In this document: positions 36,953-50,304 of the stretch, piece after piece
Layout: each line of letters opens with the position of its first letter
Position numbering within the stretch: position 1 is the first letter of the stretch
Assembly: GCA_037130365.1 (NCBI GenBank)
Contig: JBAXTE010000015.1
Coordinates: 4,242-68,241, forward strand
Direction: 5' to 3'
Source: Bacteroidota bacterium
GTDB lineage: Bacteria; Bacteroidota; Bacteroidia; Bacteroidales; WCHB1-69
DNA: 64,000 nucleotides
Made by a program: the position numbers and the translations under genes
Notes under the pieces: model-generated
What the model saw: the letters and a program-made list of their open reading frames with translations, nothing else
The model's database searches: none
What the model was told of the DNA's origin: nothing

Positions 36953-39421
36953 TCAATAAACTACAATTTTCTTCACGTCAGACAAGTTATCTCCACTATA
37001 AAGTCGCATAAAATAGATTCCATTACTTAGAGCGGTTCTGTTGATGTTTATTTTATTAGAGTTAATATGATCAAATCGAACTATTTCTTTTCCAAAAATA
37101 TCTACTATCGAAATGGAAGCTTGATTAGAAGCGTTGGAAACAGTAATTATGGCATTTTCAGTAAATGGATTTGGAGAGATAGAAAATGTAGGTTTTAGAT
37201 TTCTTTTTTCAATATTAATGGTTGATTCGCAAGAGACAGTCGCATTCCATCCAGTACCTGTAACGCCTTCATCAGCATGAAATTGAAATGTTAACGCACC
37301 CGAAGGATCTGTGGAGACAATAGTTCCCGGATTATTTGTGCCGCAATACATGCCAATTAATGGACTGCTTGTGGTTGATCCATTGTATATTTTTAGGTAA
37401 TCATAAATACAATCTTGAGAATCTTCAACTTGAAATTCTGCGAAATTTACTTTCACAAATGTATTGGCTGTAGGTGCAACTAATGTAGTGGTATAATCCG
37501 TCATATTCGAGTAATTTGCTACATTTCCACCATTATCGAGAAAAATTGCTGCACAAGTTGCTGATGGCGTTTCACCAATAATTATCTGCTGTCCCACCAT
37601 GATTGATTTTGTTATATAATTGGAAAATGTACCATCAGACACTAGGAATTTAAAATCTATTACGGTTCCAATTGGAGTATTCGCTGCAATCAATATATGA
37701 TAAACGGCTGGAATCATTTGGTTTACAGCTATCACACCTAAAGAAATTGAAGGATTTGAAATTGTGATATATTGCGCATTTGTTCCTATAACCGAACATG
37801 TTGCAGTTGCACTAGAAGAACTTAGTTGTCCTAAATTTTTAATTTGAACATTGAGGTCGGCAGATTCTCCCTGTTCTATAAATCCATTTGAGTTGTTGTC
37901 GTTAGTGATTTGTGTATAATGTACTAAAAATGAAGGCGCTGGTTGACCAAATCCTAATTTGTAGGTCATCACTGGACCGGTATTTCCAATTTGCCAAACT
38001 CTAAGGCTGCTAAGATTTGCGTTATAATAATCAGAATTTGGCGACGTGCTGTTCCCGAATTCAGTGTTAAATCCCAAGTGAAAGCATGCATTTGCATGAT
38101 CGTTCATATCGTTTCCTGCGTGTTCGAGATATACTTCGTGATGTGTGGTTTGGTTGTCGCCGCCCCGATCTATGTGCCAAATGGTTAAACCTTCATCAGG
38201 AATAGATGCACTTCGTCCAACTTGAGTTCTATTTTGGAGTAAGAAAAATTCGTTCGTGTCGTTTGGATTAACGTATTTATAGGCAGTAAGTGTATTTGCG
38301 GTATCTGAATTTAATCCGTTAAAATTGGTGACATCTACTAATTTTCCCCAGCCAGCATTTGATATAAAATGAGGATTTGGCGGAACAGGATTTGTGGCAC
38401 TTGCATAACTACACATTAAATCGAAACTGCCAATTCCATCGGTTCCGTTATCGGAGGTATATTTGTAAGTATCAGGCCACTGACCAATCATGTGTCCATT
38501 TTCGTGAGCTACCACAGCAATTTCTAAAGGCTCTTTGGCTGGGGAACAGTTATAGGCACCCGAATGAACCCCATTTGCAGTAAAATTTGGATAATATCCT
38601 TGATGAAACCACATTCCTTGCGACCAAGTTGGTGGATTCCCTGTGTACATTAGATTTATTGCGGTAATTGAGCCATCGGGATTAGTGGTGAGTGTAGAGA
38701 AATTAAATCCTAAATCTGCAATCCAATTTAATGCTAATCCTAATATTTGTTGTGCGCCCTGAGCCATAGGCATTTGGTCGTATTCGGCAAATGTACTTGG
38801 TGCACGAAAGTAACCATAAACCACATTTTCATAATCTACCAAACCTCCGGAAATATCTGAATAATATTTACGTAAAGATCCATTGTTTCCGAAATTTGAA
38901 TAGGATAAATTATTGCAGAAATTTTCAAATTCACTCATAGGCAAAGTACCTGGTTCATCAGAAAAATCTACAACAATGCATAAACCCTTTATATAGCCAT
39001 TAACAGGATGAGGTGGAGTTTTTGAAATCGAAGTATTCTCATTTTCCAATCCTGCTAATCGACGATTTTTGAGAATCACTTTTTCTCGGTTTTTTGATGA
39101 TATGTCGAGATGTTGAGAAATTCCATTAATATTCCGAATTGAGTTTTGATTGCCGGTATATCGAATTCCTGTGGATATTAATTCAGATTTATCCGCAGAT
39201 AACGTTGCATAACATATCCATTTTGATGTATTTTCTCGAATAAGAGTGTATCCGTCAAGACTTTCTCCTCGCATGTAAAATTCAGTACCATAGAGTTTTA
39301 CATTTACGCTACTACCATCTGGTTGTTTAAATTGCATCACTTTGCCATGGTATGGAACTGCAAAAAGTGTAGCTTGAATTGTGACAAAAAATAGGATAAT
39401 TAAAAAGCGATTTTTCAGCAT
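36953..39421 (-). CDS. secreted zinc metalloprotease (M6/immune-inhibitor-A-like domain) with CUB-like domain and T9SS C-terminal sorting domain
   Basis: Signal peptide MLKNRFLIILFFVTIQATLFA (start trimmed to 39421). 'VVAHENGHMIG' HExxH motif, a CUB-like segment (DCIYDYLKIYNGS...IGMYCG), and a CTD (FSISPNPFTENAIITV...NGIYFMRLY). Confidence 0.72.
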   Translation of the reverse strand: MLKNRFLIILFFVTIQATLFAVPYHGKVMQFKQPDGSSVNVKLYGTEFYMRGESLDGYTLIRENTSKWICYATLSADKSELISTGIRYTGNQNSIRNINGISQHLDISSKNREKVILKNRRLAGLENENTSISKTPPHPVNGYIKGLCIVVDFSDEPGTLPMSEFENFCNNLSYSNFGNNGSLRKYYSDISGGLVDYENVVYGYFRAPSTFAEYDQMPMAQGAQQILGLALNWIADLGFNFSTLTTNPDGSITAINLMYTGNPPTWSQGMWFHQGYYPNFTANGVHSGAYNCSPAKEPLEIAVVAHENGHMIGQWPDTYKYTSDNGTDGIGSFDLMCSYASATNPVPPNPHFISNAGWGKLVDVTNFNGLNSDTANTLTAYKYVNPNDTNEFFLLQNRTQVGRSASIPDEGLTIWHIDRGGDNQTTHHEVYLEHAGNDMNDHANACFHLGFNTEFGNSTSPNSDYYNANLSSLRVWQIGNTGPVMTYKLGFGQPAPSFLVHYTQITNDNNSNGFIEQGESADLNVQIKNLGQLSSSSATATCSVIGTNAQYITISNPSISLGVIAVNQMIPAVYHILIAANTPIGTVIDFKFLVSDGTFSNYITKSIMVGQQIIIGETPSATCAAIFLDNGGNVANYSNMTDYTTTLVAPTANTFVKVNFAEFQVEDSQDCIYDYLKIYNGSTTSSPLIGMYCGTNNPGTIVSTDPSGALTFQFHADEGVTGTGWNATVSCESTINIEKRNLKPTFSISPNPFTENAIITVSNASNQASISIVDIFGKEIVRFDHINSNKININRTALSNGIYFMRLYSGDNLSDVKKIVVY

Positions 39422-39771
39422 GGTTTCTCGAATTAATATTTTGGAAGCAAAGATAGAAAAAAGAAATATACTAATAGCGCAATGGAGCAACGTAAATGGT
39501 GAAAGGTACATGTTTCGAAAAATATCAAATCTTCGATGTTTGTTATTTTAGTGGATAATTGAAAAAATAAAAATTGCTTTAGAAAGTTTCTGCTTTTAGG
39601 GATTACAGGGCCAATGGTTCTTGCTTCTACATACTTACAGTTTATGCATTTACACACATAAACAACATACATTATTCATTTCCGCATTTCCGCTACCACA
39701 AGCATTTAGGAACACTTAACTAGAATTATTCTAAATTTTGTTTTCATTCTAATATGTATATAAATTAAATG

Positions 39772-39779: not shown

Positions 39780-39885
39780 TACAAATTTTTAAAATGGTGA
39801 ATTATCTCACCATGTATTGTACTGTATTTACGCTAAATATCTGTTTATCTGTTAATTTTTGAAGACGCATTTAATAATAAAAAAT

Positions 39886-42800
39886 ATGAAAAAACAAATT
39901 TCCTCATTAAAATCCATTTTTGGTACAGTTGCACTTCTAGTTGCAATGCTCACCCCGAATATGAGCTGGGGACAATATTCAGGTACTGGTACGTTTACAA
40001 AAATTACATCTCTTACTGATTTAACAGATGGCTATTATGTGGTTGCGTATGGGACAACTTTTGCGATGAGCAATACAAATGCAGGAACTTTTTTTGCAAG
40101 TACTTCAATAACACCTGTATCAAGTGTAATTACTAATCCAACAGCGGCAATAGTTTGGAAAATTCAAACACATGCAGATGGTGGTAGAACAATATATAAT
40201 GAGGCCACTTCAAAATATGTATCTTTTACCGGTACATCTAATGCAGCAATGGCTGTTGCAAGTGTAACAGGTGGTTCAGAACGTTGGACTTTTGCTTGGT
40301 CATCCACCGTTTTTACTGTTACAAATGTAACTACCACAACAAGACTTTTGAAGTATAATACAGCATCACCACGTTTTGCTTGCTATACTACTGGTCAACA
40401 AGATATTACTCTTTATAAAATGCCTAGTTCTCTCACTACACCAACTTTATCGCCAGATATCATTGCAAATACTGTAGATAATCCTATAGATATCACATTT
40501 ACAGATGACGCTGCTTGGAGAACTGCCATAACAGCAGTAAAAATTGGTGGAACAGCGTTAACCGCTACTACAGATTATGTAATTACTGCCGGCAATATTC
40601 AATTAAAACCATCGGGTGGAAATGTATTATTAACAGCATCTGGTTCAAAATCAGTTACTGTAGAAGCCAATGGCTATAGCGCAGCACCTGCTACTCAAAT
40701 AATTAATGCTGGTGTGCCAACTGCCAACTCTACAACTTCTATAAATTTGGCATTAGCGCCAAATACCTCCCGAACGGTTACTTGTACTGCAAAAGATCAA
40801 TATAATAATTTGGTTTCTGGTTATACGTTTAAATATGATGCATCTATAACAAATAACAATGCCACTACCTCAGAGTCATATACCATTGATGGAACAGCTC
40901 GTACATCTACAACAAATGATGTTAATGTTGCAACTGCTACAAATGTAAGTGGTGTAGCAACTTTTACTGTTGCTGTTCCTGCAACATTAGATGGTAGCGA
41001 CGGAATTAGCGTTCAAGTGCAATTATCAAATGGGTCTACAAATATTGGATCAGCATTCTCGTATGCACAATTAGCATCTCAAACAATTACTTTTGGAACG
41101 CTTTCACCTGTCACGTATGGTGATGGAACTTTTGCTATTTCTGCAACTGGTGGTGGCTCTGGTAACGCAGTAATTTTTACCAGTTCAAATACTGCTATGG
41201 CCACTTGTACGGGCACTAATGGAACTACAATCACTATTATTGCTCCAGGAACCTGCACCATTTATGCTGACCAAGCAGGTAATGGAAGTTATAACGCAGC
41301 AATTCAGGTTGGGCAATCACTACTTATTAATAAAAAAGAACTAACTGTTACTGGCGCTACTGGAAATAATAAAGTATATAGTGGAACCAATGCTGCTACA
41401 ATTTCAGGGACTTTATCTGGGGTTATTGGAGCTGATGTGGTTACATTAAATAAAACTGGAACATTTGCTACTGTTGATGTTGCAACTGATATTGTTGTTA
41501 CATCAACTTCTACTCTTTCGGGTACTGATGCTGCAAAATATTCTCTCACTCAACCAACCGGATTAACTGCTGATATTACAAAAGCAGCTCAAACGATTAC
41601 CTTTGGCGCATTAACAAACAAAACCGTTAACGATGCAGATTACGCTCCGGGTGCAATTTCCGCTACATCTGCAACTAATCCAATTTCGTATACCAGCTCA
41701 AATCTTGCAGTTGCCACTATAGTTGCAAATCAAATACATATTATGGGAGTTGGAACAACGACCATAACCGCTTCACAAGCAGCAAGTGCTAATTATAATG
41801 CTGCTACAGATATACCTCAATCATTAACAGTTACTACTGGACCAATATTGGCATGGCAGTTTGGATCTCCAGCTTCTACAGGAAGTGAAGCTACTTTTAC
41901 AGCAACAACAATTAATTCCAATATAAATACATCTTCACTTTCTAGAGGAGTTGGTATAATGGCTACTGGTTTGGCTAGAGGATTTTCTGCTAATGATTGG
42001 ACTCCTGCTGCTACAAAAGCAACAGCCGTTACTAATAATGACTATTACCAGTTCACTGTTAAAGCAAAAGTAAATTATAAAGCTTCACTATCATCATTGG
42101 ATGCGACTTTGCGCCGAACTTCAACTGGACCTAATGCTTATATTTGGAAATACAGTCTAGATGGAACAAATTTTACTGAAATTGGTTCTGATGTTAGTTT
42201 TACAGGTACTGCTGATGGAGCTGCTCAAACTCAAATAAATTTATCTGGAATTTCAGAACTTCAAAATGTTACAAATGCTACCACAATTACTTTCAGATTA
42301 TATGCTTGGGGAGCAACTGATGTTTCAGGCACATTTGCAGTTGCTAGATATGCAGCTGGTATCACAACAAATTGTTTAGCAATTGGTGGTACTGTTGAAT
42401 GTGCTACACCAGCCACTCCTACAACAACGTTAACTCAACCTACTTGTGCAGTTCAATCGGGAACAATTACCATTACTGCTCCCACGGGTGTGACATATAG
42501 CATTGATGGGTCCGATTACTCAAATAATACTGGTATCTTTAGTGGTCTAGCACCAAACACATACAGCGTGACAGCAAAGAATGTTTGTGGCGCTATTTCA
42601 GCTGTTGCAAGTGTAACCATCGATCCAATTCCTGCAACACAATGGACTGGTGCTACCAACAACGAGTGGAGCATAGGAACCAATTGGTGTGGGGGAGTTG
42701 CTCCATCTTCATCAACAGACGTAATTATTCCTTCAGGAAAATCACCACAAATTAATTCAGCAGTTGGAAGTCCAGCTGAGTGTAATAACTTAACTATTCA

Positions 42801-44532
42801 ATCGGGTGGTACTTTGACAATTAACGCAGGAAAAGCGCTTACAGCTTATGGAAATACAGTTATTGAAGGAACTTTTACCGTTAAAGCAGATGTATCTAGT
42901 GCTGGTAGTTTTATTAGCAAAGGTACCGTAACAGGAACTGCAAATGTTGAACGTTGGGTAAGTATTGTAAATAGTAATAATGGCAATACCCAACGTTGGG
43001 AATATATTTCATCTCCAATCGCATCTGCTTCATCAGCACTATTTACAACAAGTATTCATGGATTAAGATATGTGAATGAACCTACAAACACTTGGGTGAG
43101 AATTGATAATGCAGCTCCTCAAACGATGGCAATTTTTAAAGGGTATACCAGAAGTTATCAATCGGCTACAAACGATGGTGGTAATCAGGCAATTACTTAT
43201 AATGGTGCATTAAATACAGGTTCACAATCTATTGGACTAACATATACCGCTGCAGCACCAGGAACTAACCATGGTTGGAATTTAGTGGGTAATCCATACC
43301 CAAGTGCTATTGATTGGGATGCAGCTTCGGGTTGGACTAAATCAAACATCGATGGTGCCATTTATTTTCGCAAAAACGGTACAGCATGTACATATTTAAA
43401 AGATGCTGCTACTGGTGGAGCATCAAACATAATTCCTCCAATGCAAGCATTCTGGGTTAGAGTATCTGCTAATTCTACACTTACTTGTACCGATGCTGTT
43501 AGAGTTCACGTTGCTATACCAGCATACAAAACCACACCAGAAAACACACTCCATCTTACGGTTTCTACGAATGGAAAAAGTGGCTTATCCGATGATACTT
43601 ACATTCGTTTTAAAGATTATGCTACCGATGTTTTTGATAATTCTTGTGATGCGTTTAAAATGTTTGCAGAAGATGCAGCATTTCCTCAAATATACACCAT
43701 AACTGGCACTGATTCTTTGGCAATCAATAGCTTAAGTGCATTAACTAGCGATCGTGTTATTCCACTCATGTTCAAATCAACTGCTGTTGGAACATTTACA
43801 CTTACTGCCGAATTGGTTTCGAGTTTTGCAAATAGTGGCTATTATGTTTTCTTGAAAGATAAAGAAACCGGAATCATTCAAAACTTATCGGAAAATCCTC
43901 ATTATCAATTTTCTACATCCACAATAAAAGGAAACGATCGTTTTGAAGTTCAGTTTAAATCAAATACAACTCCATTGCCAATTGACCTAATCAGTTTCGA
44001 TGCAAAATGTGTGAACAACCAAGTCGCATTAAACTGGTCAACTGCTTCAGAAGTAAACAATGACTTTTTCTCAATTGAACGTAGCAAAGATGTTTTAAAT
44101 TGGGATTTAGTAGAAAAAATTCATGGTGCTGGCAATAGTAATCATTTGATAAATTATTCGTCAAAAGATGTTGAAACAACTGGTGGCACTTCATATTACC
44201 GCTTAAAACAAACCGACTTTGATGGCAAAACCGTTACCTATAGTCCTGTAACCGTTACTTGTGCTGATAATTCTACACAAACATCAGTATCATATTTTCC
44301 AAATCCATTTACATCGGAAGTAAAAGTAGAAGTTAAAAACTCAACATCAGAAACCGCTACTGTTACAATTTACGACATCTTTGGAACAAAAGTTTATACA
44401 AGGGTTCTAAATATCGATGAACTTGGGGACAAATCAATTATCTTGAATCTATCTGATTTAGCAGCTGGTGTTTATGGCGTAGAATTTCGTTCCGCAACAT
44501 ATTCTAATATTTCAAAAATCGTGAAAAAATAA
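39886..44532 (+). CDS. giant cell-surface adhesin-like protein with Ig-like/MBG-type repeats and T9SS C-terminal sorting domain
   Basis: The ATG at 39886 gives signal peptide MKKQISSLKSIFGTVALLVAML. T/S/A-rich Ig-like repeats include ..KVYSGTNAATISGTLSGVIGADVVTLN..AAKYSLTQPTGLTADITK... CTD (SYFPNPFTSEVKVEV...AGVYGVEFR). Confidence 0.8.
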   Translation: MKKQISSLKSIFGTVALLVAMLTPNMSWGQYSGTGTFTKITSLTDLTDGYYVVAYGTTFAMSNTNAGTFFASTSITPVSSVITNPTAAIVWKIQTHADGGRTIYNEATSKYVSFTGTSNAAMAVASVTGGSERWTFAWSSTVFTVTNVTTTTRLLKYNTASPRFACYTTGQQDITLYKMPSSLTTPTLSPDIIANTVDNPIDITFTDDAAWRTAITAVKIGGTALTATTDYVITAGNIQLKPSGGNVLLTASGSKSVTVEANGYSAAPATQIINAGVPTANSTTSINLALAPNTSRTVTCTAKDQYNNLVSGYTFKYDASITNNNATTSESYTIDGTARTSTTNDVNVATATNVSGVATFTVAVPATLDGSDGISVQVQLSNGSTNIGSAFSYAQLASQTITFGTLSPVTYGDGTFAISATGGGSGNAVIFTSSNTAMATCTGTNGTTITIIAPGTCTIYADQAGNGSYNAAIQVGQSLLINKKELTVTGATGNNKVYSGTNAATISGTLSGVIGADVVTLNKTGTFATVDVATDIVVTSTSTLSGTDAAKYSLTQPTGLTADITKAAQTITFGALTNKTVNDADYAPGAISATSATNPISYTSSNLAVATIVANQIHIMGVGTTTITASQAASANYNAATDIPQSLTVTTGPILAWQFGSPASTGSEATFTATTINSNINTSSLSRGVGIMATGLARGFSANDWTPAATKATAVTNNDYYQFTVKAKVNYKASLSSLDATLRRTSTGPNAYIWKYSLDGTNFTEIGSDVSFTGTADGAAQTQINLSGISELQNVTNATTITFRLYAWGATDVSGTFAVARYAAGITTNCLAIGGTVECATPATPTTTLTQPTCAVQSGTITITAPTGVTYSIDGSDYSNNTGIFSGLAPNTYSVTAKNVCGAISAVASVTIDPIPATQWTGATNNEWSIGTNWCGGVAPSSSTDVIIPSGKSPQINSAVGSPAECNNLTIQSGGTLTINAGKALTAYGNTVIEGTFTVKADVSSAGSFISKGTVTGTANVERWVSIVNSNNGNTQRWEYISSPIASASSALFTTSIHGLRYVNEPTNTWVRIDNAAPQTMAIFKGYTRSYQSATNDGGNQAITYNGALNTGSQSIGLTYTAAAPGTNHGWNLVGNPYPSAIDWDAASGWTKSNIDGAIYFRKNGTACTYLKDAATGGASNIIPPMQAFWVRVSANSTLTCTDAVRVHVAIPAYKTTPENTLHLTVSTNGKSGLSDDTYIRFKDYATDVFDNSCDAFKMFAEDAAFPQIYTITGTDSLAINSLSALTSDRVIPLMFKSTAVGTFTLTAELVSSFANSGYYVFLKDKETGIIQNLSENPHYQFSTSTIKGNDRFEVQFKSNTTPLPIDLISFDAKCVNNQVALNWSTASEVNNDFFSIERSKDVLNWDLVEKIHGAGNSNHLINYSSKDVETTGGTSYYRLKQTDFDGKTVTYSPVTVTCADNSTQTSVSYFPNPFTSEVKVEVKNSTSETATVTIYDIFGTKVYTRVLNIDELGDKSIILNLSDLAAGVYGVEFRSATYSNISKIVKK

Positions 44533-44550: not shown

Positions 44551-44739
44551 ATGAAAATCAAAGAAACAGAAAAGAATAGGTATTGTAGCCCCGAAATTCG
44601 AGTGATAAAAATTGATCATGAGATTTCGTTAGTGATGGCATCAGCAACAGGCGGTGGCGACCCTCCTCCAGGAGATGAAAATTCATCAATACAACCAGAA
44701 CGCTTTGGTGGCAATCCATTTAAACTGCCTACAGCGTAA
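44551..44739 (+). CDS. candidate RiPP precursor peptide (62 aa) with lasso-type leader motif
   Basis: MKIKETEKNRYCSPEIRVIKIDHEISLVMASATGGGDPPPGDENSSIQPERFGGNPFKLPTA. It has a YxxPxI motif, an ASA|T AXA site, T-G|G followed by D/E at core positions 8/9, and a locally GC-rich Gly/Pro core. It lies 18 nt after the adhesin stop and just upstream of the PqqD gene. Confidence 0.45.
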   Translation: MKIKETEKNRYCSPEIRVIKIDHEISLVMASATGGGDPPPGDENSSIQPERFGGNPFKLPTA

Positions 44740-44768
44740 TCTATAAAAGTTCTAATCGTATATAGCAT

Positions 44769-44813
44769 CATAGCTCTTTCAAACAATTTGAGAGGAGTTA
44801 TGGTGTTTTTTTT
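44769..44813 (+). terminator. candidate (attenuating) terminator after the small ORF
   Basis: Long imperfect hairpin catagctctttcaaa-caa-tttgagaggagttatg, followed by gtgtttttttt. Confidence 0.4.
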
Positions 44814-44908
44814 GAACGCAGATGTCTCAGCTGAATGCAGATTGCGCAGATTATTTTTGTTTTTATCCGCGAAGATCCGCCTGATCTGCCTAATTCGTGT
44901 TCTATTTA
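44812..44908. repeat. 'ATCCGC-word' repeat element, short copy B
   Basis: ttgaacgcagatg..gaatgcagat...tatccgcgaagatccgcctgatctgcctaattcgtgttctatttat parallels 48633-48720 and 36696-36945. Confidence 0.8.
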
Positions 44909-44984
44909 TTTAGTGATATATTCATCAGATGACTATTTACATCCTCTACTTAAAGATTTTTTGTATTTTTACATAAAAAATCAG

Positions 44985-45266
44985 ATGGACTTATCAGAAT
45001 TATACCATAAGAAATCAAGTTTTGCAGCAAGAAATGTCGGTACAGAGATTATCTTAGTGCCAGTTAAAAATAGTGTTGCTGATATGAACGAGTTATTTAC
45101 TTTAAACGAAGTTGGTAGTTTTATCTGGAATCATATTGATGGAGAAAAGTCTGAAAATGATATTGTTAAAGCACTAATTGTTGATTTTAACGTAGATGAA
45201 GAAAGAGCAATTAAAGATGTGAAGGAATTTATAGAAAGTTTAAAAGCTCTGATTGAAAAATCTTAA
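44985..45266 (+). CDS. PqqD-family protein (RiPP recognition element, lasso B1-like)
   Basis: 93 aa from the ATG at 44985. '..GTEIILVPVKN...LFTLNEVGSFIWNHIDGEKSENDIVKALIVDFNVDEERAIKDVKEFIESL' fits the PqqD pattern. The 50 codons upstream in the ORF track merely translate repeat copy B. Confidence 0.78.
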   Translation: MDLSELYHKKSSFAARNVGTEIILVPVKNSVADMNELFTLNEVGSFIWNHIDGEKSENDIVKALIVDFNVDEERAIKDVKEFIESLKALIEKS

Positions 45267-45269
45267 ATT

Positions 45270-46154
45270 GTGTCAATTTTGAATTCGAAAACTATTTGTA
45301 TTGCTGGCTTTATTATAAAATTATGTTCTGAAAATCAGGAGGGATTTCTTTTAGAGGAAGGATTTATTCCATTTCTGATCAATCATAATTCAAATGATTT
45401 TGATGTGTCGATAACTAGTGTAATTGGAATTCCAGAGGCTTTATTGATGACAGATAATTTGCTTTTTGAAGCTAAAAATGAACAACAAAAATTCTTTTCA
45501 ATTTATCAGCAGGGTGAATCGTATAAATTTATTGTTTATAATCAACAGCTAGATAACAATGAAATTCAGCAGGTAGCAATCCTGAATCAAGACTTAAATA
45601 ATTGGATTGTATATTCAGCAAAATCTGAAAATAATGAATTAGTATATCCCATTTTATATCCGTTGGGTCCATTAGTGATGTATTATTTAACCGTAAAATA
45701 TGATGCGATTATGATTCATGCTTCTGGTGTTTTTGATGGACAGTATGGTAGGATTTTTTCTGGAGTATCAGGAACTGGAAAATCAACGATTTCCTTTTTG
45801 TGGCAAAAAAATGGAAGTTTAATTATTAACGACGATCGTTTAATCATTCGCAAAGAGCACGATGATTATTACATATACAACACACCCATGTTTTACGCTG
45901 ATATTCCTAAAAGAACTCAATTGCATTCGGTAAACTTAATTCATCATGCTTCAAGAAATAATGCAATTCGACTAAATGGAGCCATGGCTGTTTCGCAATT
46001 AATGGCTTTCTGTATACAACATAGCTATAATAATGCTTTCTTAGAACATCACCTCGAGTTTCTTTCTGGACTTTGCGCCCAATTGCCCGTGTACGATTTA
46101 GGGTTTTTACCTGACGATAATATTGTTAATTATATAAAAGCAAATGCAGTCTGA
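45270..46154 (+). CDS. HPr kinase (HprK)-like serine kinase family protein
   Basis: 294 aa with a GTG start 3 nt after the PqqD stop. 'IHASGVFDGQYGRIFSGVSGTGKSTISFLWQKNGSLIINDDRLII' parallels the HprK/P C-terminal domain (H.G.....G.G.L..G.SG.GKS....L...G..L..DD). Confidence 0.72.
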   Translation: MSILNSKTICIAGFIIKLCSENQEGFLLEEGFIPFLINHNSNDFDVSITSVIGIPEALLMTDNLLFEAKNEQQKFFSIYQQGESYKFIVYNQQLDNNEIQQVAILNQDLNNWIVYSAKSENNELVYPILYPLGPLVMYYLTVKYDAIMIHASGVFDGQYGRIFSGVSGTGKSTISFLWQKNGSLIINDDRLIIRKEHDDYYIYNTPMFYADIPKRTQLHSVNLIHHASRNNAIRLNGAMAVSQLMAFCIQHSYNNAFLEHHLEFLSGLCAQLPVYDLGFLPDDNIVNYIKANAV

Positions 46155-48387
46155 TCAATTATTTAATGAATTACATGAGCTGATTGACGAATTGCTTACC
46201 GATAATAAATGGGTAAAGCTCAAGGTTGGCGGGTATAGTATGTTCCCCTTTTTTAAGAATGGTGAGATTATTACCATTAAAAAATGTCCTGCTTCTGAAC
46301 TTGTAATAGGAGATGTGGTTGTTTTTAAAATTAGGGATAAATGGATTGCGCATCGGTTAATCAAAATCCAACTTATTGACAACAAAAAGATTCTAATTAC
46401 CAAAGGAGATTCATGCAAAAAAATAGATTCAAAGTTTGCTGAAGAATGCATTATTGGTAAAGTTGTATCTTTTTCTAAGAATCATCAACCGAAAAGCCTT
46501 GAAACGAAATATTATAAAATTATTGGAAGGATTATGGCTCAGTTTTCGACCATTGTTACCCCGTTTATTGTCGCTTTATTATGGCTAGTTTTGCGAGTAA
46601 TGAGAGTTTATAAAAGCATTAAGAATGTCTTTAAAAGTATGTTCTTTATTTGCCGAGATTCAAGGCGCATCGCATTCGTGAACATACTTATTTCTGTTTT
46701 TCAAGGAGTTCTACCTTTCGTAATTATTTATTTGATTAAACGATTAGTTGATGCAATTTCGGTAGTCAATTCATACACTGATAAGATTGATGCATATAAA
46801 GTAATCGGGGTTATTATTGTGGTCACAGGCATTGCTTTTCTAGCGCAATCTATCTTATCGATTATAGGTAATGAAATTCGGGTAAGGCTTACTCAGTCGA
46901 TTACGATGTATATTTATAGGTTGCTTCATAAAAAATATTCTTCATTAGAAATGGCTTATATTGAAGATGCAAATCAACAGGATGTTATTCATCGTGCAGT
47001 TCAAGAAGCTGGTTTTAGACCAATTAAAATGGTAAACGAAAGTCTTTCGGTAGTTCAATCTTTAGCCTCTTGGTTATTTATTGCAGTGATCTTGTTTACA
47101 ATACATTGGGCTGTTTTTTTTCTGATAATAATTGCTGTTTTACCAGGTTTTTTAATCCGGATTAAATATTCAAAGAAATTTTATAATCTAAATAAAGAGA
47201 ATAGCCCAAAAGAGCGTGAAGCACATTATTACAATAGAATTTTAACAGGACTGCCCTTTGCTAAGGAACTTCGGCTCTTCGGTCTTGAGAATTTCTTCAC
47301 TGGCAGATTTAATAATATTCAAAAAGATTTATACCATAAAAAAAACAAATTATCTCGGAAGCAGGCAATTGCAGATATTTATGCACAGACTTTTGCTATC
47401 GTGGTTATCTTTTTGTCCTTTGGATTTGTTGCTTATCTTGGCGTTAATGGTTCAATATCAATCGGCACAGTGGTGCTTTTCTTTTTGATTTTTCAGAGAG
47501 GATTTTCTGTAATGAAAGACCTTTTTCAGTCAATTGCAGGGTTATTTGGTGACAATGTTTTTATAAATGATTTCTTTTATTTTTTGAAATTTTCGCCACT
47601 GCAAGAATTGTCCGAAGTTAAAGAAACGATAGCTCCATTACAAAAAGGAATTGTGGTCGAAAATGTGAGCTTTCATTATCCTTCTAGCCAACGGCAAGCA
47701 CTTCAATCAATTTCATTACAAATTCCTGCGGGCAAAACGGTGGCGCTTGTGGGAGCAAATGGATCGGGAAAAACAACCCTCGTCAAATTACTTTGTGGGT
47801 TTTATACTCCACAGCAAGGTAGAATCTTATTCGATAATATAGATATTTCATCGATAAATCCTGACGAAATTCGTGAGCAAATTTCTGCCGTTTTTCAAGA
47901 TTTTGCATTATATAATTTAACAGCAAAAGAGAATATTGCTCTTGGGATGAATTCAAAACCGATAAATGATAGCGAAATTGAACAATCAGCATCTAATTCT
48001 GGTATTGCAGAAGTCCTTGCTAAACTCCCAAACGGATACGATAGTTTGCTTGGGAATTTGTTCGAAAAAGGGGAGGAGCTTAGCATTGGTCAGTGGCAAA
48101 AAATTGCAATTGCTAAAGCTTTTTATCGGAATACGCCAATACTTTTTATGGACGAACCATCGAGTGCACTAGATGCAGAAACAGAATTACATATTTTGAA
48201 CAACTTAAAATTATTGGCAAAAGATAAAACAACCCTCATAATAAGTCATCGTTTTTCGACAATTAAGTGGGTGGATGTGATATATGTTTTAGACGAAGGT
48301 GTTGTTGTCGAAAGTGGCGATCATGAAAAATTAATGGCATTAGAAGGCAAGTATTTTAATATGTATCAGCACAGTGTGAATAAATAG
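46144..48387 (+). CDS. ABC exporter (6-TM + NBD) fused to an N-terminal S26B (SipW/Sec11-type) signal-peptidase-like domain
   Basis: 747 aa; the start overlaps the kinase stop by 11 nt. N-terminal ~120 aa carry 'GGYSMFP', 'IAHRLI' and 'ITKGDS'. Then comes an extra hydrophobic helix, six TM helices, Walker A 'GANGSGKTT', signature 'LSIGQWQ', Walker B 'ILFMDEPSSALD' and 'ISHR'. Confidence 0.82.
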   Translation: MQSDQLFNELHELIDELLTDNKWVKLKVGGYSMFPFFKNGEIITIKKCPASELVIGDVVVFKIRDKWIAHRLIKIQLIDNKKILITKGDSCKKIDSKFAEECIIGKVVSFSKNHQPKSLETKYYKIIGRIMAQFSTIVTPFIVALLWLVLRVMRVYKSIKNVFKSMFFICRDSRRIAFVNILISVFQGVLPFVIIYLIKRLVDAISVVNSYTDKIDAYKVIGVIIVVTGIAFLAQSILSIIGNEIRVRLTQSITMYIYRLLHKKYSSLEMAYIEDANQQDVIHRAVQEAGFRPIKMVNESLSVVQSLASWLFIAVILFTIHWAVFFLIIIAVLPGFLIRIKYSKKFYNLNKENSPKEREAHYYNRILTGLPFAKELRLFGLENFFTGRFNNIQKDLYHKKNKLSRKQAIADIYAQTFAIVVIFLSFGFVAYLGVNGSISIGTVVLFFLIFQRGFSVMKDLFQSIAGLFGDNVFINDFFYFLKFSPLQELSEVKETIAPLQKGIVVENVSFHYPSSQRQALQSISLQIPAGKTVALVGANGSGKTTLVKLLCGFYTPQQGRILFDNIDISSINPDEIREQISAVFQDFALYNLTAKENIALGMNSKPINDSEIEQSASNSGIAEVLAKLPNGYDSLLGNLFEKGEELSIGQWQKIAIAKAFYRNTPILFMDEPSSALDAETELHILNNLKLLAKDKTTLIISHRFSTIKWVDVIYVLDEGVVVESGDHEKLMALEGKYFNMYQHSVNK

Positions 48388-48513
48388 AGTCTGCCGAAAT
48401 AAAACTGAAACGACATTAATACATTTGGATCGCTGATGACGCAGATAATTTTGATAGCATATTTGAAGATGAGACAATTTGTTCCGAAAAACTTTAAATC
48501 TTTGATTTAACTG

Positions 48514-48720
48514 TTTTTCGAGAATCCTCTAAAAATCACAATCCGCTAGTTCGCGGATCTATTTTTAGGGAATGATTTGAAAATGGAGATAGCAATTTGC
48601 TTATCCTGCTCAATCCGCGTTCTATTTATATTTGGAACGTGATGACCCAGATGAATGCTGATTTTTGTTTTTTTAATCCGCGAATATCCGCTCAATCCGC
48701 GTAATCCGTGTTCTATTTAT
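48514..48720. repeat. composite 'ATCCGC-word' intergenic repeat element, copy C
   Basis: 48523-48599 matches 36550-36623. It is followed by ..atcctgctcaatccgcgttctattta.. ggaacgtgatgacccagatgaatgctgat ...aatccgcgaatatccgctcaatccgcgtaatccgtgttctatttat. Confidence 0.85.
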
Positions 48721-48721
48721 A

Positions 48722-49912
48722 TTATTTTTTGATAATTGTTTTTTTTATTAGAAATAAGAGTTCGAAAAGGCCAGCTTTTAATCGAACCAAATAATACAAA
48801 AAAATCAGCCATTTACTTTTAATCTGATATCGCTTTCGCATATAATTTGAAGAAGGAAATATGTCATTCAAAAGATATTTAAATTTATTTCCAAATCCCG
48901 AAACTCGCTTTATTGCTTCTACGCTTGTATTTGATATTGTTTTTTTTATTTCTATAGTATCCCCTTTGAAATAGGATATAAATAATTGTTCAAAATCTTG
49001 TTCAAATGACTGATAAACATTTGATTGTATTTCTTCTGGTAATAAAGCTCCAAAATATTTATTAATAATATAAAGATGCCGATTCACATTTTTTGTGCAA
49101 TTATACTTTATACATGTCTGATTAAAAGTATCCCAATTAAATTCGTCTTTATAAAACTTCAGCACTGCCGCAATGTCGCAATACGAATAAAGTTGAATTT
49201 TTCCATACATAAAATGGTAGTCTAAATGTAGGCAAAGATGTTGTAATAAGTCGTTCGGCGATAATGCTAAACACTTCGAGTTATTGATTGTAACAGGTTG
49301 AGCATTTTGCCAATAATCATCGATATCAACATAATATTCACAATTGCTGGGATGAATTTTTAAATGTAATTCAACCGGAATATTTTCTTTTAAAAGTTGA
49401 GGTAAGTGCTTTATATCAGTATTCCTTTTTATAAAATCTGATTTGTAACGATCTTCGCATACAAAGCCAATATTGATTAAGGAGTTTTTGCAATTTTCTG
49501 CATCATCAACTTTCACAAGTAAGTCAATATCGCTCATTTGGCGGATTCCCAAATCTTTATAAATGCAGTTGACCAGAAAGATTCCCTTTAAAGCAATCAC
49601 CGGAGTTCCTAGCTCTGAAATTGCATTAATGACATCGTTAAAATTTTTATAGATGATTTCATTTCGAAAAAAAGACTGGTAATAGGTCTGTTTTAATTTT
49701 GATATTGTAGAATCAGGAATTGAAGAATAATTAATGGCATATGAAAGGTTCTTATAAATTAATGGACCTACGCTATTGCGAATTACATTGTTGGTAAAGT
49801 TATCCCAATCGTTTACGTTACTAATCAATTGCTCCATTGATAAAATCTCATCATCTGAAGGATGAAGTCTAGCTGCTGCAAATATTAGTTTATCTTCAAC
49901 GGAAATTGTCAT
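48722..49912 (-). CDS. uncharacterised nucleotidyltransferase family protein (NTP_transf_5 / PF14907-like)
   Basis: 396 aa. 'IALKGIFLVNCIYKDLGIRQMSDIDLLVKVDDAENCKNSLINIGF' matches the family core (LKG....Y.D.G.R...DIDLLV). Confidence 0.7.
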   Translation of the reverse strand: MTISVEDKLIFAAARLHPSDDEILSMEQLISNVNDWDNFTNNVIRNSVGPLIYKNLSYAINYSSIPDSTISKLKQTYYQSFFRNEIIYKNFNDVINAISELGTPVIALKGIFLVNCIYKDLGIRQMSDIDLLVKVDDAENCKNSLINIGFVCEDRYKSDFIKRNTDIKHLPQLLKENIPVELHLKIHPSNCEYYVDIDDYWQNAQPVTINNSKCLALSPNDLLQHLCLHLDYHFMYGKIQLYSYCDIAAVLKFYKDEFNWDTFNQTCIKYNCTKNVNRHLYIINKYFGALLPEEIQSNVYQSFEQDFEQLFISYFKGDTIEIKKTISNTSVEAIKRVSGFGNKFKYLLNDIFPSSNYMRKRYQIKSKWLIFLYYLVRLKAGLFELLFLIKKTIIKK

Positions 49913-50096
49913 TTCAAAAGAGGTAGTTTAATTATAAGTATACATGAAATTTATCGTACCAATATTCAAAGATAAAACATTTTTGAGCTTGGGCTCAAAT
50001 TTTTATCAACTACAATTAATGTTTTAATCAATGGAGCTTAAATTCAAAAGAATAATTATTAAGTGAACACAATTTATTTATGAAAATATTTTGTAT

Positions 50097-50123
50097 AAAA
50101 AAAACCCACCGATATAGTGGGTT
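50097..50123 (-). terminator. rho-independent terminator after tRNA-Ser
   Basis: The minus strand reads cccac-tatatcg-gtggg followed by T8. Confidence 0.6.
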
Positions 50124-50138
50124 GTTTAAAATTGATTG

Positions 50139-50225
50139 CGGAGAGATAGGGATTCGAACCCTAGGACCCCTCGCGAGGTCAACAGTTTTCGAGACTGCCC
50201 CAATCGACCACTCTGGCATCTCTCC
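50139..50225 (-). tRNA. tRNA-Ser (anticodon CGA), class II with long variable arm; CCA not encoded
   Basis: GGAGAGATGCCAGAGTGGTCGATTGGGGCAGTCTCGAAAACTGTTGACCTCGCGAGGGGTCCTAGGGTTCGAATCCCTATCTCTCCG folds by hand into a cloverleaf. The acceptor is GGAGAGA/TCTCTCC, the anticodon loop is CTCGAAA, and the T-arm is TAGGG-TTCGAAT-CCCTA. Confidence 0.88.
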
Positions 50226-50229
50226 ATTT

Positions 50230-50291
50230 TTGGGAGTTCTTCCTGACTGCCCCTCCCGATAACTATCGGGACGACCACTCTGGCATCTCTC
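50230..50291 (-). pseudogene. truncated 5' fragment of tRNA-Ser with an 18-nt hairpin insertion, located in the tRNA-Ser leader
   Basis: GGAGAGATGCCAGAGTGGTCG[TCCCGATAGTTATCGGGA]GGGGCAGTC... repeats tRNA positions 1-21 and 25-33. It then diverges and has no 3' half. A 29-bp perfect direct repeat lies at 50205-50233 and 50272-50300. Confidence 0.55.
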
Positions 50292-50304
50292 CATTTTTGG
50301 TTTG

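Follow-up and report, generated by a model that had tools for sequence, protein, structure and literature searches.

A Bacteroidota locus resembling the linear polyphosphorylated peptide pathways of Bacillota

Genes and features of the locus

A sequence-only reading of the window (the whole 64-kb stretch of DNA that was analysed) had proposed a five-gene locus made up of a small ORF, a PqqD-family protein, an HprK-like kinase, a peptidase-exporter fusion and a convergent nucleotidyltransferase. An ORF check of the window recovered all five ORFs at the positions proposed, and the family assignments of the four larger proteins held. The features are listed below together with the neighbouring type IX secretion (T9SS) cargo gene.

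39859-44532, + strand: T9SS cargo protein, 1557 aa (Pfam)
44551-44739, + strand: precursor peptide, 62 aa (peptide HMM family)
44581-44592, + strand: predicted motif for binding the RiPP recognition element (RRE), Y11-x-x-P14 (conserved family motif)
44626-44628, + strand: predicted leader cleavage after Ser26 (analogy with LppA, PMC13381572)
44641-44643, + strand: predicted phospho-acceptor Ser31 (analogy with LppA, PMC13381572)
44985-45266, + strand: discrete PqqD-family RRE, 93 aa (PF05402, 2.7e-17)
45270-46154, + strand: HprK-like (ScmC-family) P-loop kinase, 294 aa, GTG start (motifs, AF2 fold); Walker A at G165-S172
46144-48387, + strand: MsbA-like ABC exporter with an N-terminal SipW/archaeal-type signal peptidase I domain, 747 aa (profiles); S26 peptidase domain at aa ~1-125 with catalytic Ser32, His70 and Asp89 (TIGR02228, SipW); 6-TM exporter part with TMD at aa ~175-450 and NBD at aa ~520-745 (ABC_membrane, ABC_tran)
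48541-48558, both strands: terminator-like hairpin between the convergent exporter and nucleotidyltransferase genes (pattern match only)
48722-49912, - strand: PF14907 (NTP_transf_5) nucleotidyltransferase, 396 aa, convergent (PF14907, 1.8e-53)

The PqqD ORF, nested in a longer ORF starting at 44835, scored 63.3 bits against PF05402 (cutoff 23.4) and weakly matched TbiB1 (5v1u) and PbaB1 (9x90), both lasso RREs; its homologues are 90-105 aa long. The kinase start codon lies 3 nt past the PqqD stop, and the fusion gene overlaps the kinase stop by 11 nt. The full fusion protein scored 111.6 bits with ABC_tran, 49.4 with ABC_membrane and 26.2 with Peptidase_S24 (cutoff 23.3), and peptidase residues 1-159 alone matched the archaeal-type signal peptidase I model TIGR02228 at 69 bits (cutoff 51.85) and the SipW model at 1.9e-7. 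The nucleotidyltransferase scored 182 bits with PF14907. For the kinase, all profile scores fell under the curated cutoffs (PEPCK_ATP 2.7e-5, Hpr_kinase_C 0.04, HprK_rel_B 3.3e-7), but the assignment is supported by an invariant GxSGxGKS Walker A, by retained HprK-like H-A-S and NDDR motifs, and by an AlphaFold2 model (pLDDT 92.6) for which Foldseek returned only PEPCK and HprK/P structures.

Conservation of the enzymes and the precursor

A genome scan gave 169 relatives, a large Bacteroidota sister family to which the window belongs. Carriers with complete genomes include Paludibacter propionicigenes, OY781920.1, OY782858.1 and OW818699.1. We read 87 loci, of which 83 were non-redundant. Among the latter, PqqD was found in 78 of 80 loci and the S26 domain in 71 of 71, fused to the ABC exporter in 61 and standalone in 10; S32, H70 and D89 are invariant in all 61 fusions. 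The absence of a lasso cyclase C and B2 protease, claimed earlier for the 64 kb, was borne out: no SGGxDS PP-loop motif occurred in any frame of the window, and no Asn_synthase or Transglut_core3 match was obtained with Pfam in 41 of its 44 ORFs of at least 120 aa, the three unscanned ORFs being short and antisense to larger annotated genes that they overlap. Nor did an Asn-synthase PP-loop motif lie within 10 kb of any of the 83 non-redundant loci, or of any of the 86 loci read besides the window, so that the PqqD-kinase-S26 core, the constant part of the family, recurs without a cyclase. Of 59 related loci whose sequence reached far enough downstream, 20 had the PF14907 gene (12 of 49 fused-type and 8 of 10 standalone-type loci). 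The nucleotidyltransferase, to which the sequence-only reading had given a possible part in the chemistry, is thus a gene of this locus but only an optional accessory in the family, and its counterpart in a published system had no detectable activity (PMC13381572).

The 62-aa ORF reads, as predicted leader and then core, MKIKETEKNRYCSPEIRVIKIDHEIS followed by LVMASATGGGDPPPGDENSSIQPERFGGNPFKLPTA. Since it is a member of a conserved peptide family beside the same enzymes, it is not a chance ORF; the family adjoins them in 39 of the 87 loci read. With the peptide HMM, 35 loci yielded 48 ORFs, besides short versions, and the Bacteroidota motif is YxxPxhxxhxhDxEIS/LxMxS (the slash marks the predicted junction). 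Across 51 unique peptides, counting from the motif tyrosine, Y1, P4 and D12 are each kept in 51/51, position 16 is Ser in 46, Ala in 4 and Val in 1, and position 21 is Ser in 50 and Thr in 1. The shortest precursors end at Ser21, and cores of only 5-7 residues occur in the family (ILMAS, LVMTSVG). A small residue, Ser or Ala, at position 16 fits a signal-peptidase P1 site, and the 16-residue distance of this position to the YxxP tyrosine equals that of the LppA cleavage site. By this analogy, the leader is predicted to be cut after Ser26 and Ser31 to be phosphorylated.

Relation to known peptide pathways

Linear polyphosphorylated peptide (LPP) clusters, lppA-K-B-S-D-N, were described from Paenibacillus alginolyticus (Popov et al., Nat Commun 2026;17:6633, PMC13381572). 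There, LppK polyphosphorylates core Ser3, the SipW-like peptidase LppS removes the leader only together with the RRE LppB, and the product is linear and serine-polyphosphorylated (PMC13381572). LPPs were described as restricted to Bacillota; Supplementary Data 1 of that work lists two Bacteroidota fusions, each next to an RRE and unanalysed there, one of them on the contig of our locus L075, and the published similarity network places fused proteins in a separate cluster 8, not cluster 1 (PMC13381572).

The window shares with these clusters a YxxP-leader precursor, an HprK-like kinase, a discrete PqqD RRE, a SipW/archaeal-type Ser-His-Asp leader peptidase, an MsbA-like exporter and a PF14907 NTP transferase, and macrolactam cyclase is absent from both. 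In the RRE, which is 20-30% identical to its Bacillota counterparts, the two YxxP-binding residues of LppB, N33 and D70 (PMC13381572), have their matches in Asn41 (79/80) and Asp78 (80/80). Judged by sequence, the window PqqD would be the equivalent of LppB/B1 and the fusion that of LppS::LppD, its S26 domain being a full-length homologue of LppS-type peptidases (22-32% identity across the whole domain). The kinase would correspond to LppK by motifs and predicted fold, and the accessory nucleotidyltransferase gene to LppN. Both precursor families place a small hydroxyl residue 16 positions past the motif Tyr, followed by a conserved early-core Ser, although hhalign aligned their profiles over K-Y-x-x-P-x-h only, with a probability of 50%. 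The junction differs, DxEIS/LxMxS in Bacteroidota versus HQxIxFET/xxS in LPP, and the conserved Ser therefore lies at +5, not +3. The Bacteroidota loci, from a different phylum and at only 20-32% sequence identity, depart further from published LPPs in carrying the NTP transferase in only about a third of cases. New relative to those systems are the fusion of peptidase to exporter (61/71 loci), cores as short as 5 residues, and the pairing of precursor genes with T9SS cargo genes, where LPP genes are partnered with a capsule locus.

Other systems share parts of this design. Paeninodin-type lasso clusters (padeA-C-B1-B2-D-K) likewise combine an RRE-guided [Y/W]xxP leader, an HprK-like Ser kinase, PF14907 and an ABC exporter, and the paeninodin kinase phosphorylates a C-terminal Ser. 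In contrast to them, the window has neither an Asn-synthetase-like cyclase nor a transglutaminase-like B2 protease, its leader peptidase is a serine S26 enzyme, and a linear product is expected. Peptidase-containing exporters (PCATs) are likewise 6-TM ABC exporters that begin with a cytoplasmic leader peptidase domain and couple leader removal to export, but theirs is a Cys C39 domain that acts on double-glycine leaders, whereas the Ser/His/Asp S26 (SipW-like) domain of the window should depend on a separate RRE protein for recognition, and its family has no conserved double-glycine cleavage motif. The SynChlorMet (SCM) cassette comprises ScmC, the PqqD-like ScmD and two radical SAM/SPASM enzymes (TIGR04248-04251). 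Homologues of the window kinase bear Pfam PF27840 'ScmC', and the window PqqD weakly matches ScmD (1.2e-8, below cutoff), but the locus has an S26 peptidase and ABC exporter in place of radical SAM/SPASM maturases, the enzymes with which ScmC is otherwise found (TIGRFAM description).

Proposed pathway and alternatives

We consider the locus to be a Bacteroidota version of the LPP pathway, with a probability of about 0.78, and its product to be, most likely by analogy, a small linear phosphorylated peptide. Gene content, conservation and catalytic residues were observed directly here, as was the kinase fold in its AF2 model; from chemistry demonstrated in distant Bacillota homologues we infer, by analogy, that of the Bacteroidota locus, with its cleavage site, phosphorylation site, order of steps and product. 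The earlier proposal, in which an RRE recognises a linear peptide that undergoes phosphorylation, export and S26 cleavage, gains support from the cyclase-free core in 83 loci and from the Bacillota biochemistry. Its distinct class stands as a cyclase-free linear class, though not as an undescribed one: the pathway type was published in May 2026 as LPP, from Bacillus relatives (PMC13381572).

In the pathway we propose, the small PqqD protein would bind the 62-aa precursor through Y11-x-x-P14, and the HprK-like kinase would phosphorylate Ser31, the invariant serine at core position 5, once or several times. The PqqD-leader complex would then offer ...D-H-E-I-S26/L27... to the Ser32/His70/Asp89 signal-peptidase-like domain, which would cut off the leader, and the ABC exporter would move the 36-residue linear phosphopeptide over the inner membrane, with the logic of peptidase-containing bacteriocin exporters but another protease class. 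The nucleotidyltransferase may further decorate the phosphoserine, and no macrolactam ring would be made. Only 8% of the 61 fusions have a TM-like linker (segment 136-150), and since there is no conserved extra TM helix, the S26 domain is predicted to face the cytoplasm. Because this domain lies on the side of the ABC N-terminus and requires the cytoplasmic RRE, the leader is probably cleaved on the cytoplasmic side, either ahead of export or in the course of it; S26 cleavage as proposed earlier is retained, its placement after export is not.

If the precursor were instead cyclized by a C and B2 pair encoded elsewhere, with S26::ABC only exporting or trimming, then the YxxP leader, discrete RRE, HprK-like kinase and PF14907 known from paeninodin-type clusters would be accounted for, and LPP genes do adjoin lasso genes in about one third of Bacillota cases (PMC13381572). 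Such a split lasso pathway, the other option of the sequence-only reading, is nevertheless highly improbable: PP-loop motifs are missing from the window and from the 10 kb around the other loci, neither lasso enzyme family was matched among the scanned ORFs of the window, the S26 peptidase occurs throughout the family in the place of B2, cores of 5-7 residues, as found in family members, are unable to form a threaded lasso, and the predicted window core begins with Leu and has no Asp/Glu at positions 7-9.

We judge it unlikely that the HprK-like protein serves another nucleotide-dependent step or a scaffold, leaving an unphosphorylated or differently modified linear peptide. That possibility draws on the sub-cutoff HprK and PEPCK scores and on ScmC, the nearest named family, for which we know of no function or activity, but it is opposed by the motifs and fold search and by the near-invariant hydroxyl at position 21, where the shortest precursors end. 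HprK-like enzymes of the LPP and paeninodin systems are, moreover, proven peptide Ser kinases (PMC13381572). Finally, the enzymes might act on another peptide or on the T9SS protein, the small ORF being a co-transcribed accessory: no recognisable precursor was found nearby in 32 of the 64 loci having upstream sequence, and the small ORF is linked to the large T9SS genes no less closely than to the enzymes, with an orphan pair in L087. We regard this as quite improbable, since the peptide keeps the invariant YxxP bound by such RREs and the corresponding Asn and Asp are conserved in the RRE, tandem mini-precursors adjoin the enzymes in four loci that all lack a T9SS protein (L053, L070, L071, L074), and the peptide HMM matched no large protein.

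The cluster holds no outer-membrane export component. By Pfam, the T9SS cargo protein carries Shr-like HID and YDG domains, and aa 1480-1555 form its Por_Secre_tail sorting domain; a conserved all-beta module of ~400 aa (aa ~950-1400, nt ~42706-44059) has no Pfam match. Its AF2 model (pLDDT 82) gave only generic Ig/FnIII/S-layer-like fold matches. We treat this gene as a linked partner and a candidate component only. The all-beta module is common to 46 large neighbours in related loci, and the precursor ORF directly follows 37 of 52 proteins of this kind.

Genes and domain assignments of the locus

ORF re-reading of the window returned the five genes at the positions given in the sequence-only reading, and the domain calls made there held in profile searches, with the kinase sequence models falling under cutoff.

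Genes of the locus (coordinates, strand, assignment and its basis)
44551-44739 (+): precursor ORF, 62 aa; ORF reading
44985-45266 (+): PqqD-family RiPP recognition element (RRE), 93 aa, from an internal ATG within a longer ORF
45270-46154 (+): HprK-like kinase, GTG start 3 nt past the preceding stop; fold and motifs
46144-48387 (+): S26 peptidase::ABC exporter fusion, 747 aa, overlapping the kinase stop; Pfam and TIGR02228
48722-49912 (-): PF14907 NTP_transf_5 nucleotidyltransferase, convergent; Pfam

The PqqD start at 44985 is supported by the length of its homologues (90-105 aa). In the Pfam scan, PqqD scored 63 bits against PF05402 (cutoff 23.4), the nucleotidyltransferase scored 182 bits against NTP_transf_5, and the exporter fusion scored 112 bits for ABC_tran and 49 bits for ABC_membrane, with its residues 16-108 matching Peptidase_S24 at 26.2 bits (cutoff 23.3). 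Searched alone, the N-terminal 159 residues of the fusion matched TIGR02228, the archaeal/ER-type signal peptidase I model, at 69 versus 51.85 bits, and also touched the SipW model. A sigma-70 promoter scan gave 49 sites versus 47.2 in shuffled sequence, that is, no excess. Just past the nucleotidyltransferase gene lies a tRNA-Ser (anticodon CGA) at 50138-50225 (-), because of which the overlapping ‘ORFs’ at 50028-50294 are regarded as artefacts.

Judged by sequence, the kinase was the weak point of the locus. Its matches to PEPCK_ATP (2.7e-5), Hpr_kinase_C (0.04) and HprK_rel_B (3.3e-7) were all under cutoff, and a sequence search against PDB chains returned nothing useful. In an alignment of 27 homologues the GxSGxGKS P-loop was invariant and was flanked by HprK-like H-A-S and N-D-D-R motifs. 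The AlphaFold2 model had a mean pLDDT of 92.6, and its only fold matches in the PDB were PEP carboxykinases and HPr kinase/phosphorylases. Homologues of the kinase are tagged with a newer Pfam family, PF27840 ‘ScmC’; a literature search for this name and for ‘SynChlorMet’ found only unrelated acronyms. The SynChlorMet cassette carries two radical SAM/SPASM maturases (ScmE, ScmF) beside ScmC and ScmD, whereas no radical SAM gene was present in our locus or among the conserved neighbours of related loci. The sole radical SAM ORF in the window was of the B12-binding type and lay 30 kb away.

Within the exporter fusion, Ser32, His70 and Asp89 were invariant in all 61 fusions compared. A hydrophobicity profile of the same 61 proteins showed the six transmembrane helices of an MsbA-type exporter, while the linker at aa 136-150 was TM-like in 8% of them. 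The peptidase domain is therefore predicted to be cytoplasmic as a family feature, on the same side as PqqD and the kinase, and a seventh helix in the linker that would put the peptidase in the periplasm was rejected at the family level since it was TM-like in so few proteins. The linker of the window protein itself (nt 46549-46593) was strongly hydrophobic and TM-like, with a Kyte-Doolittle value of about 2.0 over 19 residues, and a seventh helix in this one copy may place its peptidase domain in the periplasm. The arrangement is that of the C39 peptidase-containing ABC transporters (PCATs), with a serine S26 protease instead of the C39 cysteine protease, and so parallels them with another catalytic class. 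PCATs are defined by a C39 domain and a double-glycine leader, whereas the N-terminal domain here is S24/S26, the NHLM and bacteriocin ABC models matched only the TMD and NBD regions, and no conserved GG junction was found among the precursor peptides. Since no periplasmic adaptor or outer-membrane channel is encoded in the cluster, the peptide would go to the periplasm or the outer face of the inner membrane.

A Bacteroidota family and its precursor peptides

Relatives of the kinase numbered 480 in the protein database (E <= 0.001), almost all from Bacteroidota metagenome bins, and 169 in a genome scan with one genome per species. The bins included Paludibacter, other Bacteroidales, Lentimicrobiaceae, Tenuifilaceae, Flavobacteriales, Pedobacter, Parapedobacter and Chryseobacterium. 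We read 80 of the 169 with 10-kb flanks, together with six metagenomic contexts, and census figures refer to the 83 non-redundant loci among these. PqqD lay upstream of the kinase in 78 of 80 loci, and an S26 domain lay downstream in all 71 with enough sequence, fused to the ABC exporter in 61. Clustering of all neighbours in the related loci yielded no other conserved enzyme. Since PqqD and S26 were the constant companions of the kinase and no further enzyme was conserved, the core of the system consists of PqqD, the HprK-like kinase and the S26 peptidase. Most members fuse the peptidase to the exporter, and the nucleotidyltransferase is an optional gene in this family, PF14907 being present in 20 of 59 loci (12/49 of the fused type, 8/10 of the standalone type). 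The remaining ten S26 domains were standalone proteins of 150-170 aa, and those that could be placed to order all belonged to Flavobacteriales or Sphingobacteriales, a variant in which the nucleotidyltransferase is almost always there. One locus labelled Alphaproteobacteria (L024, SACF01000018.1) had the same gene order as the Bacteroidales locus L021 and nearly identical precursors. Its label is probably a binning error, so that, among the loci read, the family seems limited to Bacteroidota.

The sequence-only reading depended on conservation of a small ORF upstream of PqqD, and this was borne out. An HMM built from five copies of the precursor found 48 ORFs in 35 loci, at most three per locus, as well as very short forms (25-33 aa), tandemly arrayed, at four loci.

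Mini-precursor tandem arrays (locus, coordinates, strand)
L053: 12971-13431 (-)
L070: 9236-9607 (+)
L071: 8084-8576 (+)
L074: 14152-14259 (+)

Residues were counted over 51 unique peptides anchored on the motif tyrosine (position 1, Tyr11 in the window). Y1, P4 and D12 were present in 51/51, hydrophobic residues occupied positions 6, 9, 11, 17 and 19, position 14 was E or D, and I15 occurred in 49/51. Position 16 was Ser in 46, Ala in 4 and Val in 1, while position 21 was Ser in 50 and Thr in 1. The shortest precursors stopped exactly at Ser21 (...DSEIS-ILMAS, ...DSDIS-LVMTS). Because mini-precursors end at Ser21 or 1-3 residues past it, mature cores of about 5-7 residues are implied, and such natural minimal substrates, ending at a conserved serine, should simplify working out the modification chemistry. 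Residues past position 21 were variable, and in the Bacteroidales clade they were Pro-rich and usually ended (N/D)PFK-xxx. For the 48 loci lacking an HMM match, a relaxed regular expression and a listing of small ORFs upstream of PqqD found no precursor, so many precursors must lie elsewhere or be too divergent. A precursor-like segment fused to the large upstream proteins was also considered and was rejected, since no long ORF matched the peptide HMM.

Beside these genes we noted two further features. In L070 and L074, where no ABC exporter is fused to the S26 peptidase, the nucleotidyltransferase adjoins a multi-pass membrane protein (L070:11252-12886 (+), L074:12546-14141 (-)) that by eye looks MOP/Wzx-like, possibly a hint of export linked to a lipid or glycan. 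Directly 3' of the exporter, L001 (13578-20861) and about 9-11 Paludibacter-type loci (L026, L035, L062, L064 and others) share a conserved run of genes for Glu-tRNA synthetase, a methyltransferase, a GT4 glycosyltransferase and two UDP-GlcNAc 2-epimerase-like proteins. This run recalls the capsule-locus setting reported for LPP clusters of Bacillota (LPP, linear polyphosphorylated peptide), though plain lineage synteny may also account for it.

Relation to the linear polyphosphorylated peptides of Bacillota

This type of pathway was published in May 2026 under the name LPP (PMC13381572). That work began from a SipW-like signal peptidase in Bacilli (Popov et al., Nat Commun 2026;17:6633, PMC13381572) and described clusters in which LppS is the peptidase, LppB a discrete RRE, LppK an HprK-like kinase, LppN an NTP transferase, so far uncharacterised, and LppD an MsbA-like transporter, with precursors (LppA) carrying YxxPxVLxHQxIxFETxxS (PMC13381572). 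Expressed in B. subtilis, the genes yielded a linear peptide that carried between one and four phosphates, every one of them on core Ser3; deletion of lppK abolished phosphorylation, deletion of lppS left the leader on, and deletion of lppN had no visible effect (PMC13381572). LppS cut after Thr-1 only with LppB present, and its S29A, H68A and D93A variants were inactive (PMC13381572).

The window locus resembles this system part by part. The Ser32, His70 and Asp89 of the fusion correspond to LppS S29, H68 and D93, which points to a Ser-His-Asp peptidase of the archaeal/SipW signal peptidase I type with a predicted role as leader peptidase. The kinase is HprK-like at the level of fold and motif, and an MsbA-like exporter and PF14907 are both encoded in the window. 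In PqqD, Asn41 (79/80 in the family) and Asp78 (80/80) align with N33 and D70 of LppB, which bind the Pro and Tyr of its YxxP motif (PMC13381572). A paeninodin-type lasso RRE, which reads WxxP, has Gly and Gln at these places instead, and PqqD is predicted to be a discrete YxxP-binding RRE. It shares 20-30% identity with LppB-type RREs and 42% with an acidobacterial RRE found beside an S26 peptidase. The S26 domain aligned over its full length with the peptidases of LppS sequence cluster 1 at 22-32% identity, and the alignment takes in the N-terminal helix, which touches the RRE in LppS.

The differences lie in sequence and motif. Two fused Bacteroidota proteins listed by Popov et al. fall in SSN cluster 8, outside the LppS cluster (SSN cluster 1) (PMC13381572). 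Of the LPP precursor consensus only K-Y-x-x-P-x-h aligns (hhalign probability 50%), and the rest of the motif here reads xhxhDxEIS-LxMxS. The geometry is kept: counting 16 positions on from the Tyr, both families have a small hydroxyl residue (Thr-1 for LppA, Ser/Ala for Bacteroidota), and a conserved early-core Ser comes soon after, at +3 in LppA and at +5 in the Bacteroidota family. Since the two systems share parts and geometry and are distant in sequence and motif, we filed the locus as an LPP-like sister variant outside the published LPP cluster. LPPs were called ‘restricted to the Bacillota’ in the Discussion of that paper (PMC13381572). With this large, compact sister family in Bacteroidota, an RRE, an HprK-like kinase and a signal-peptidase-like leader protease would together form an old cross-phylum RiPP chassis. 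Supplementary Data 1 of that work does list two Bacteroidota peptidase-ABC fusions (747 and 743 aa) in SSN cluster 8, namely WP_013444635.1 from Paludibacter propionicigenes and OIP81682.1 from the contig of our census locus L075, each with an adjacent RRE and ‘ND’ in all other columns (PMC13381572). From these entries we take it that the fusion was seen by the authors and left unanalysed. RiPPs of Bacteroidales have been mined in another paper, which leaves this system out. What is new here is a variant that spans the phylum, fuses protease and exporter, has a precursor motif of its own and minimal cores, and is linked to type IX secretion (T9SS) cargo. SSN clusters 4, 6, 7 and 8 of the same table hold RRE-adjacent S26 peptidases from Planctomycetota (Brocadia, Kuenenia), Acidobacteriota and Clostridia as well, all unanalysed (PMC13381572). 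Kuenenia CAJ74029.1 and Porphyromonadaceae OIP81680.1 have one and the same RRE sequence in this table, apparently through a spreadsheet error (PMC13381572).

By this comparison PqqD would bind the leader at Y11-C-S-P14, the kinase would phosphorylate Ser31, the S26 domain would cut after Ser26, and the exporter would release LVMA-pS-ATGGGDPPPGDENSSIQPERFGGNPFKLPTA. Ser31 is the candidate acceptor because no other position combines a near-invariant hydroxyl residue with the exclusion of Ala, and because the shortest precursors have this Ser as their C-terminus. The latter recalls paeninodin, in which the phosphorylated residue is the C-terminal Ser.

The sequence-only reading had weighed a linear, phosphorylated and S26-cleaved peptide against a split lasso pathway with the cyclase (C) and B2 protease encoded elsewhere in the genome. 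The absence of both enzymes noted there was confirmed for the 64 kb: no SGGxDS PP-loop occurred in any frame, and no match to PF00733 Asn_synthase or PF13471 Transglut_core3 was found in 41 of the 44 window ORFs of at least 120 aa, which encode housekeeping and surface proteins instead (the other three, outside the Pfam scan, are short and overlap larger opposite-strand genes). The motif was likewise missing from real ORFs of 86 other loci, that is, within 10 kb of any locus read, and PqqD, kinase and S26 co-travel without a cyclase motif in the 83 non-redundant loci, a pattern that the sequence-only reading had proposed to look for. B2 is universally replaced by S26, and cores of 5-7 residues cannot form a lasso. 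Lasso cores begin with Gly, Ala, Ser or Cys, have Asp or Glu at 7-9 to close a macrolactam of 7-9 residues, and thread their tail through it, whereas the window core, read from the putative cleavage site, begins LVMASATGGGD. On the 64 kb of the window and the 10-kb flanks of the other loci, we therefore regard a split lasso pathway as unlikely and the linear reading as supported, with all chemistry of the Bacteroidota variant inferred.

Two further doubts concern the parts rather than the class. The HprK/PEPCK fold of the P-loop protein, its motifs and the invariant Ser in the precursors make it less likely that this protein is something other than a kinase. That the small ORF is not the substrate is also unlikely, since its YxxP motif matches the RRE residues and since mini-precursor arrays adjoin the enzymes in loci that have no T9SS gene.

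Association of precursors with T9SS cargo

The LPP-like locus has one functional lead without counterpart in the Bacillota systems, a tight pairing of precursors with T9SS cargo. The window precursor starts 18 nt past the stop of a gene for a 1557-aa T9SS cargo protein (39859-44532) with Shr-like HID, YDG and Por_Secre_tail domains (Pfam). After PqqD, kinase and exporter, such large proteins were the commonest neighbours, ahead of the nucleotidyltransferase, with 52 in 35 loci. All they share is a module of ~400 aa (aa ~950-1400 of the window protein) just before the T9SS sorting domain, which matched no Pfam family. A precursor ORF lay directly 3' of 37 of the 52, with 31-176 nt between the stop and the precursor Tyr codon, and some loci (L002, L063) held two or three cargo-precursor pairs in a row. 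Pairs were also seen in L001 and L069, among others. In L087 the pair is an orphan, the next 10 kb being free of maturation genes. A C-terminal (N/D)P(F/Y/L/M) tail was found in 27 of 32 module-linked peptides versus 5 of 18 unlinked ones (odds ratio 14, Fisher p = 1.3e-4, not corrected for relatedness).

The module was predicted by AlphaFold to be an all-beta stalk (pLDDT 82). Its fold search gave generic beta-sandwich matches (Ig/FnIII/S-layer-like) with TM-scores of only 0.1-0.2, and it is for this reason left without an assigned function. It is widespread on T9SS cargo with many different N-terminal domains, and more distant homologues (about 35% identity) had no precursor downstream. Our literature search found no paper linking T9SS with RiPP precursors. 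One reading, which we put forward as a long shot, is that in Bacteroidales/Paludibacter the phosphopeptide is a functional partner of the cargo: it would be delivered to the periplasm by the ABC exporter, bind or attach to the beta module through its (N/D)PF(K) tail and reach the surface via T9SS. As part of this reading, precursor genes may be translationally or transcriptionally coupled to the module-bearing genes. If true, the peptide would be a ligand, anchor or modifier of surface proteins and not a free antibiotic-like product.

A 72-79-aa ORF tagged PF28310 PID_CTERM follows the distant module homologue P0155 (Cohesin-like) in L089 (11929-12168) and L090 (11950-12168); here another small partner, not an LPP-like precursor, takes that place. 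Immediately upstream of the window locus lie a bacterial alpha-2-macroglobulin of 1833 aa (30976-36477 (-)) and a CUB-domain T9SS cargo protein of 852 aa (36953-39511 (-)), whose C-terminal region (T9SS sorting domain included, aa ~690-862 of the frame) shows ~26% identity to the C-terminal end of the 1557-aa protein.
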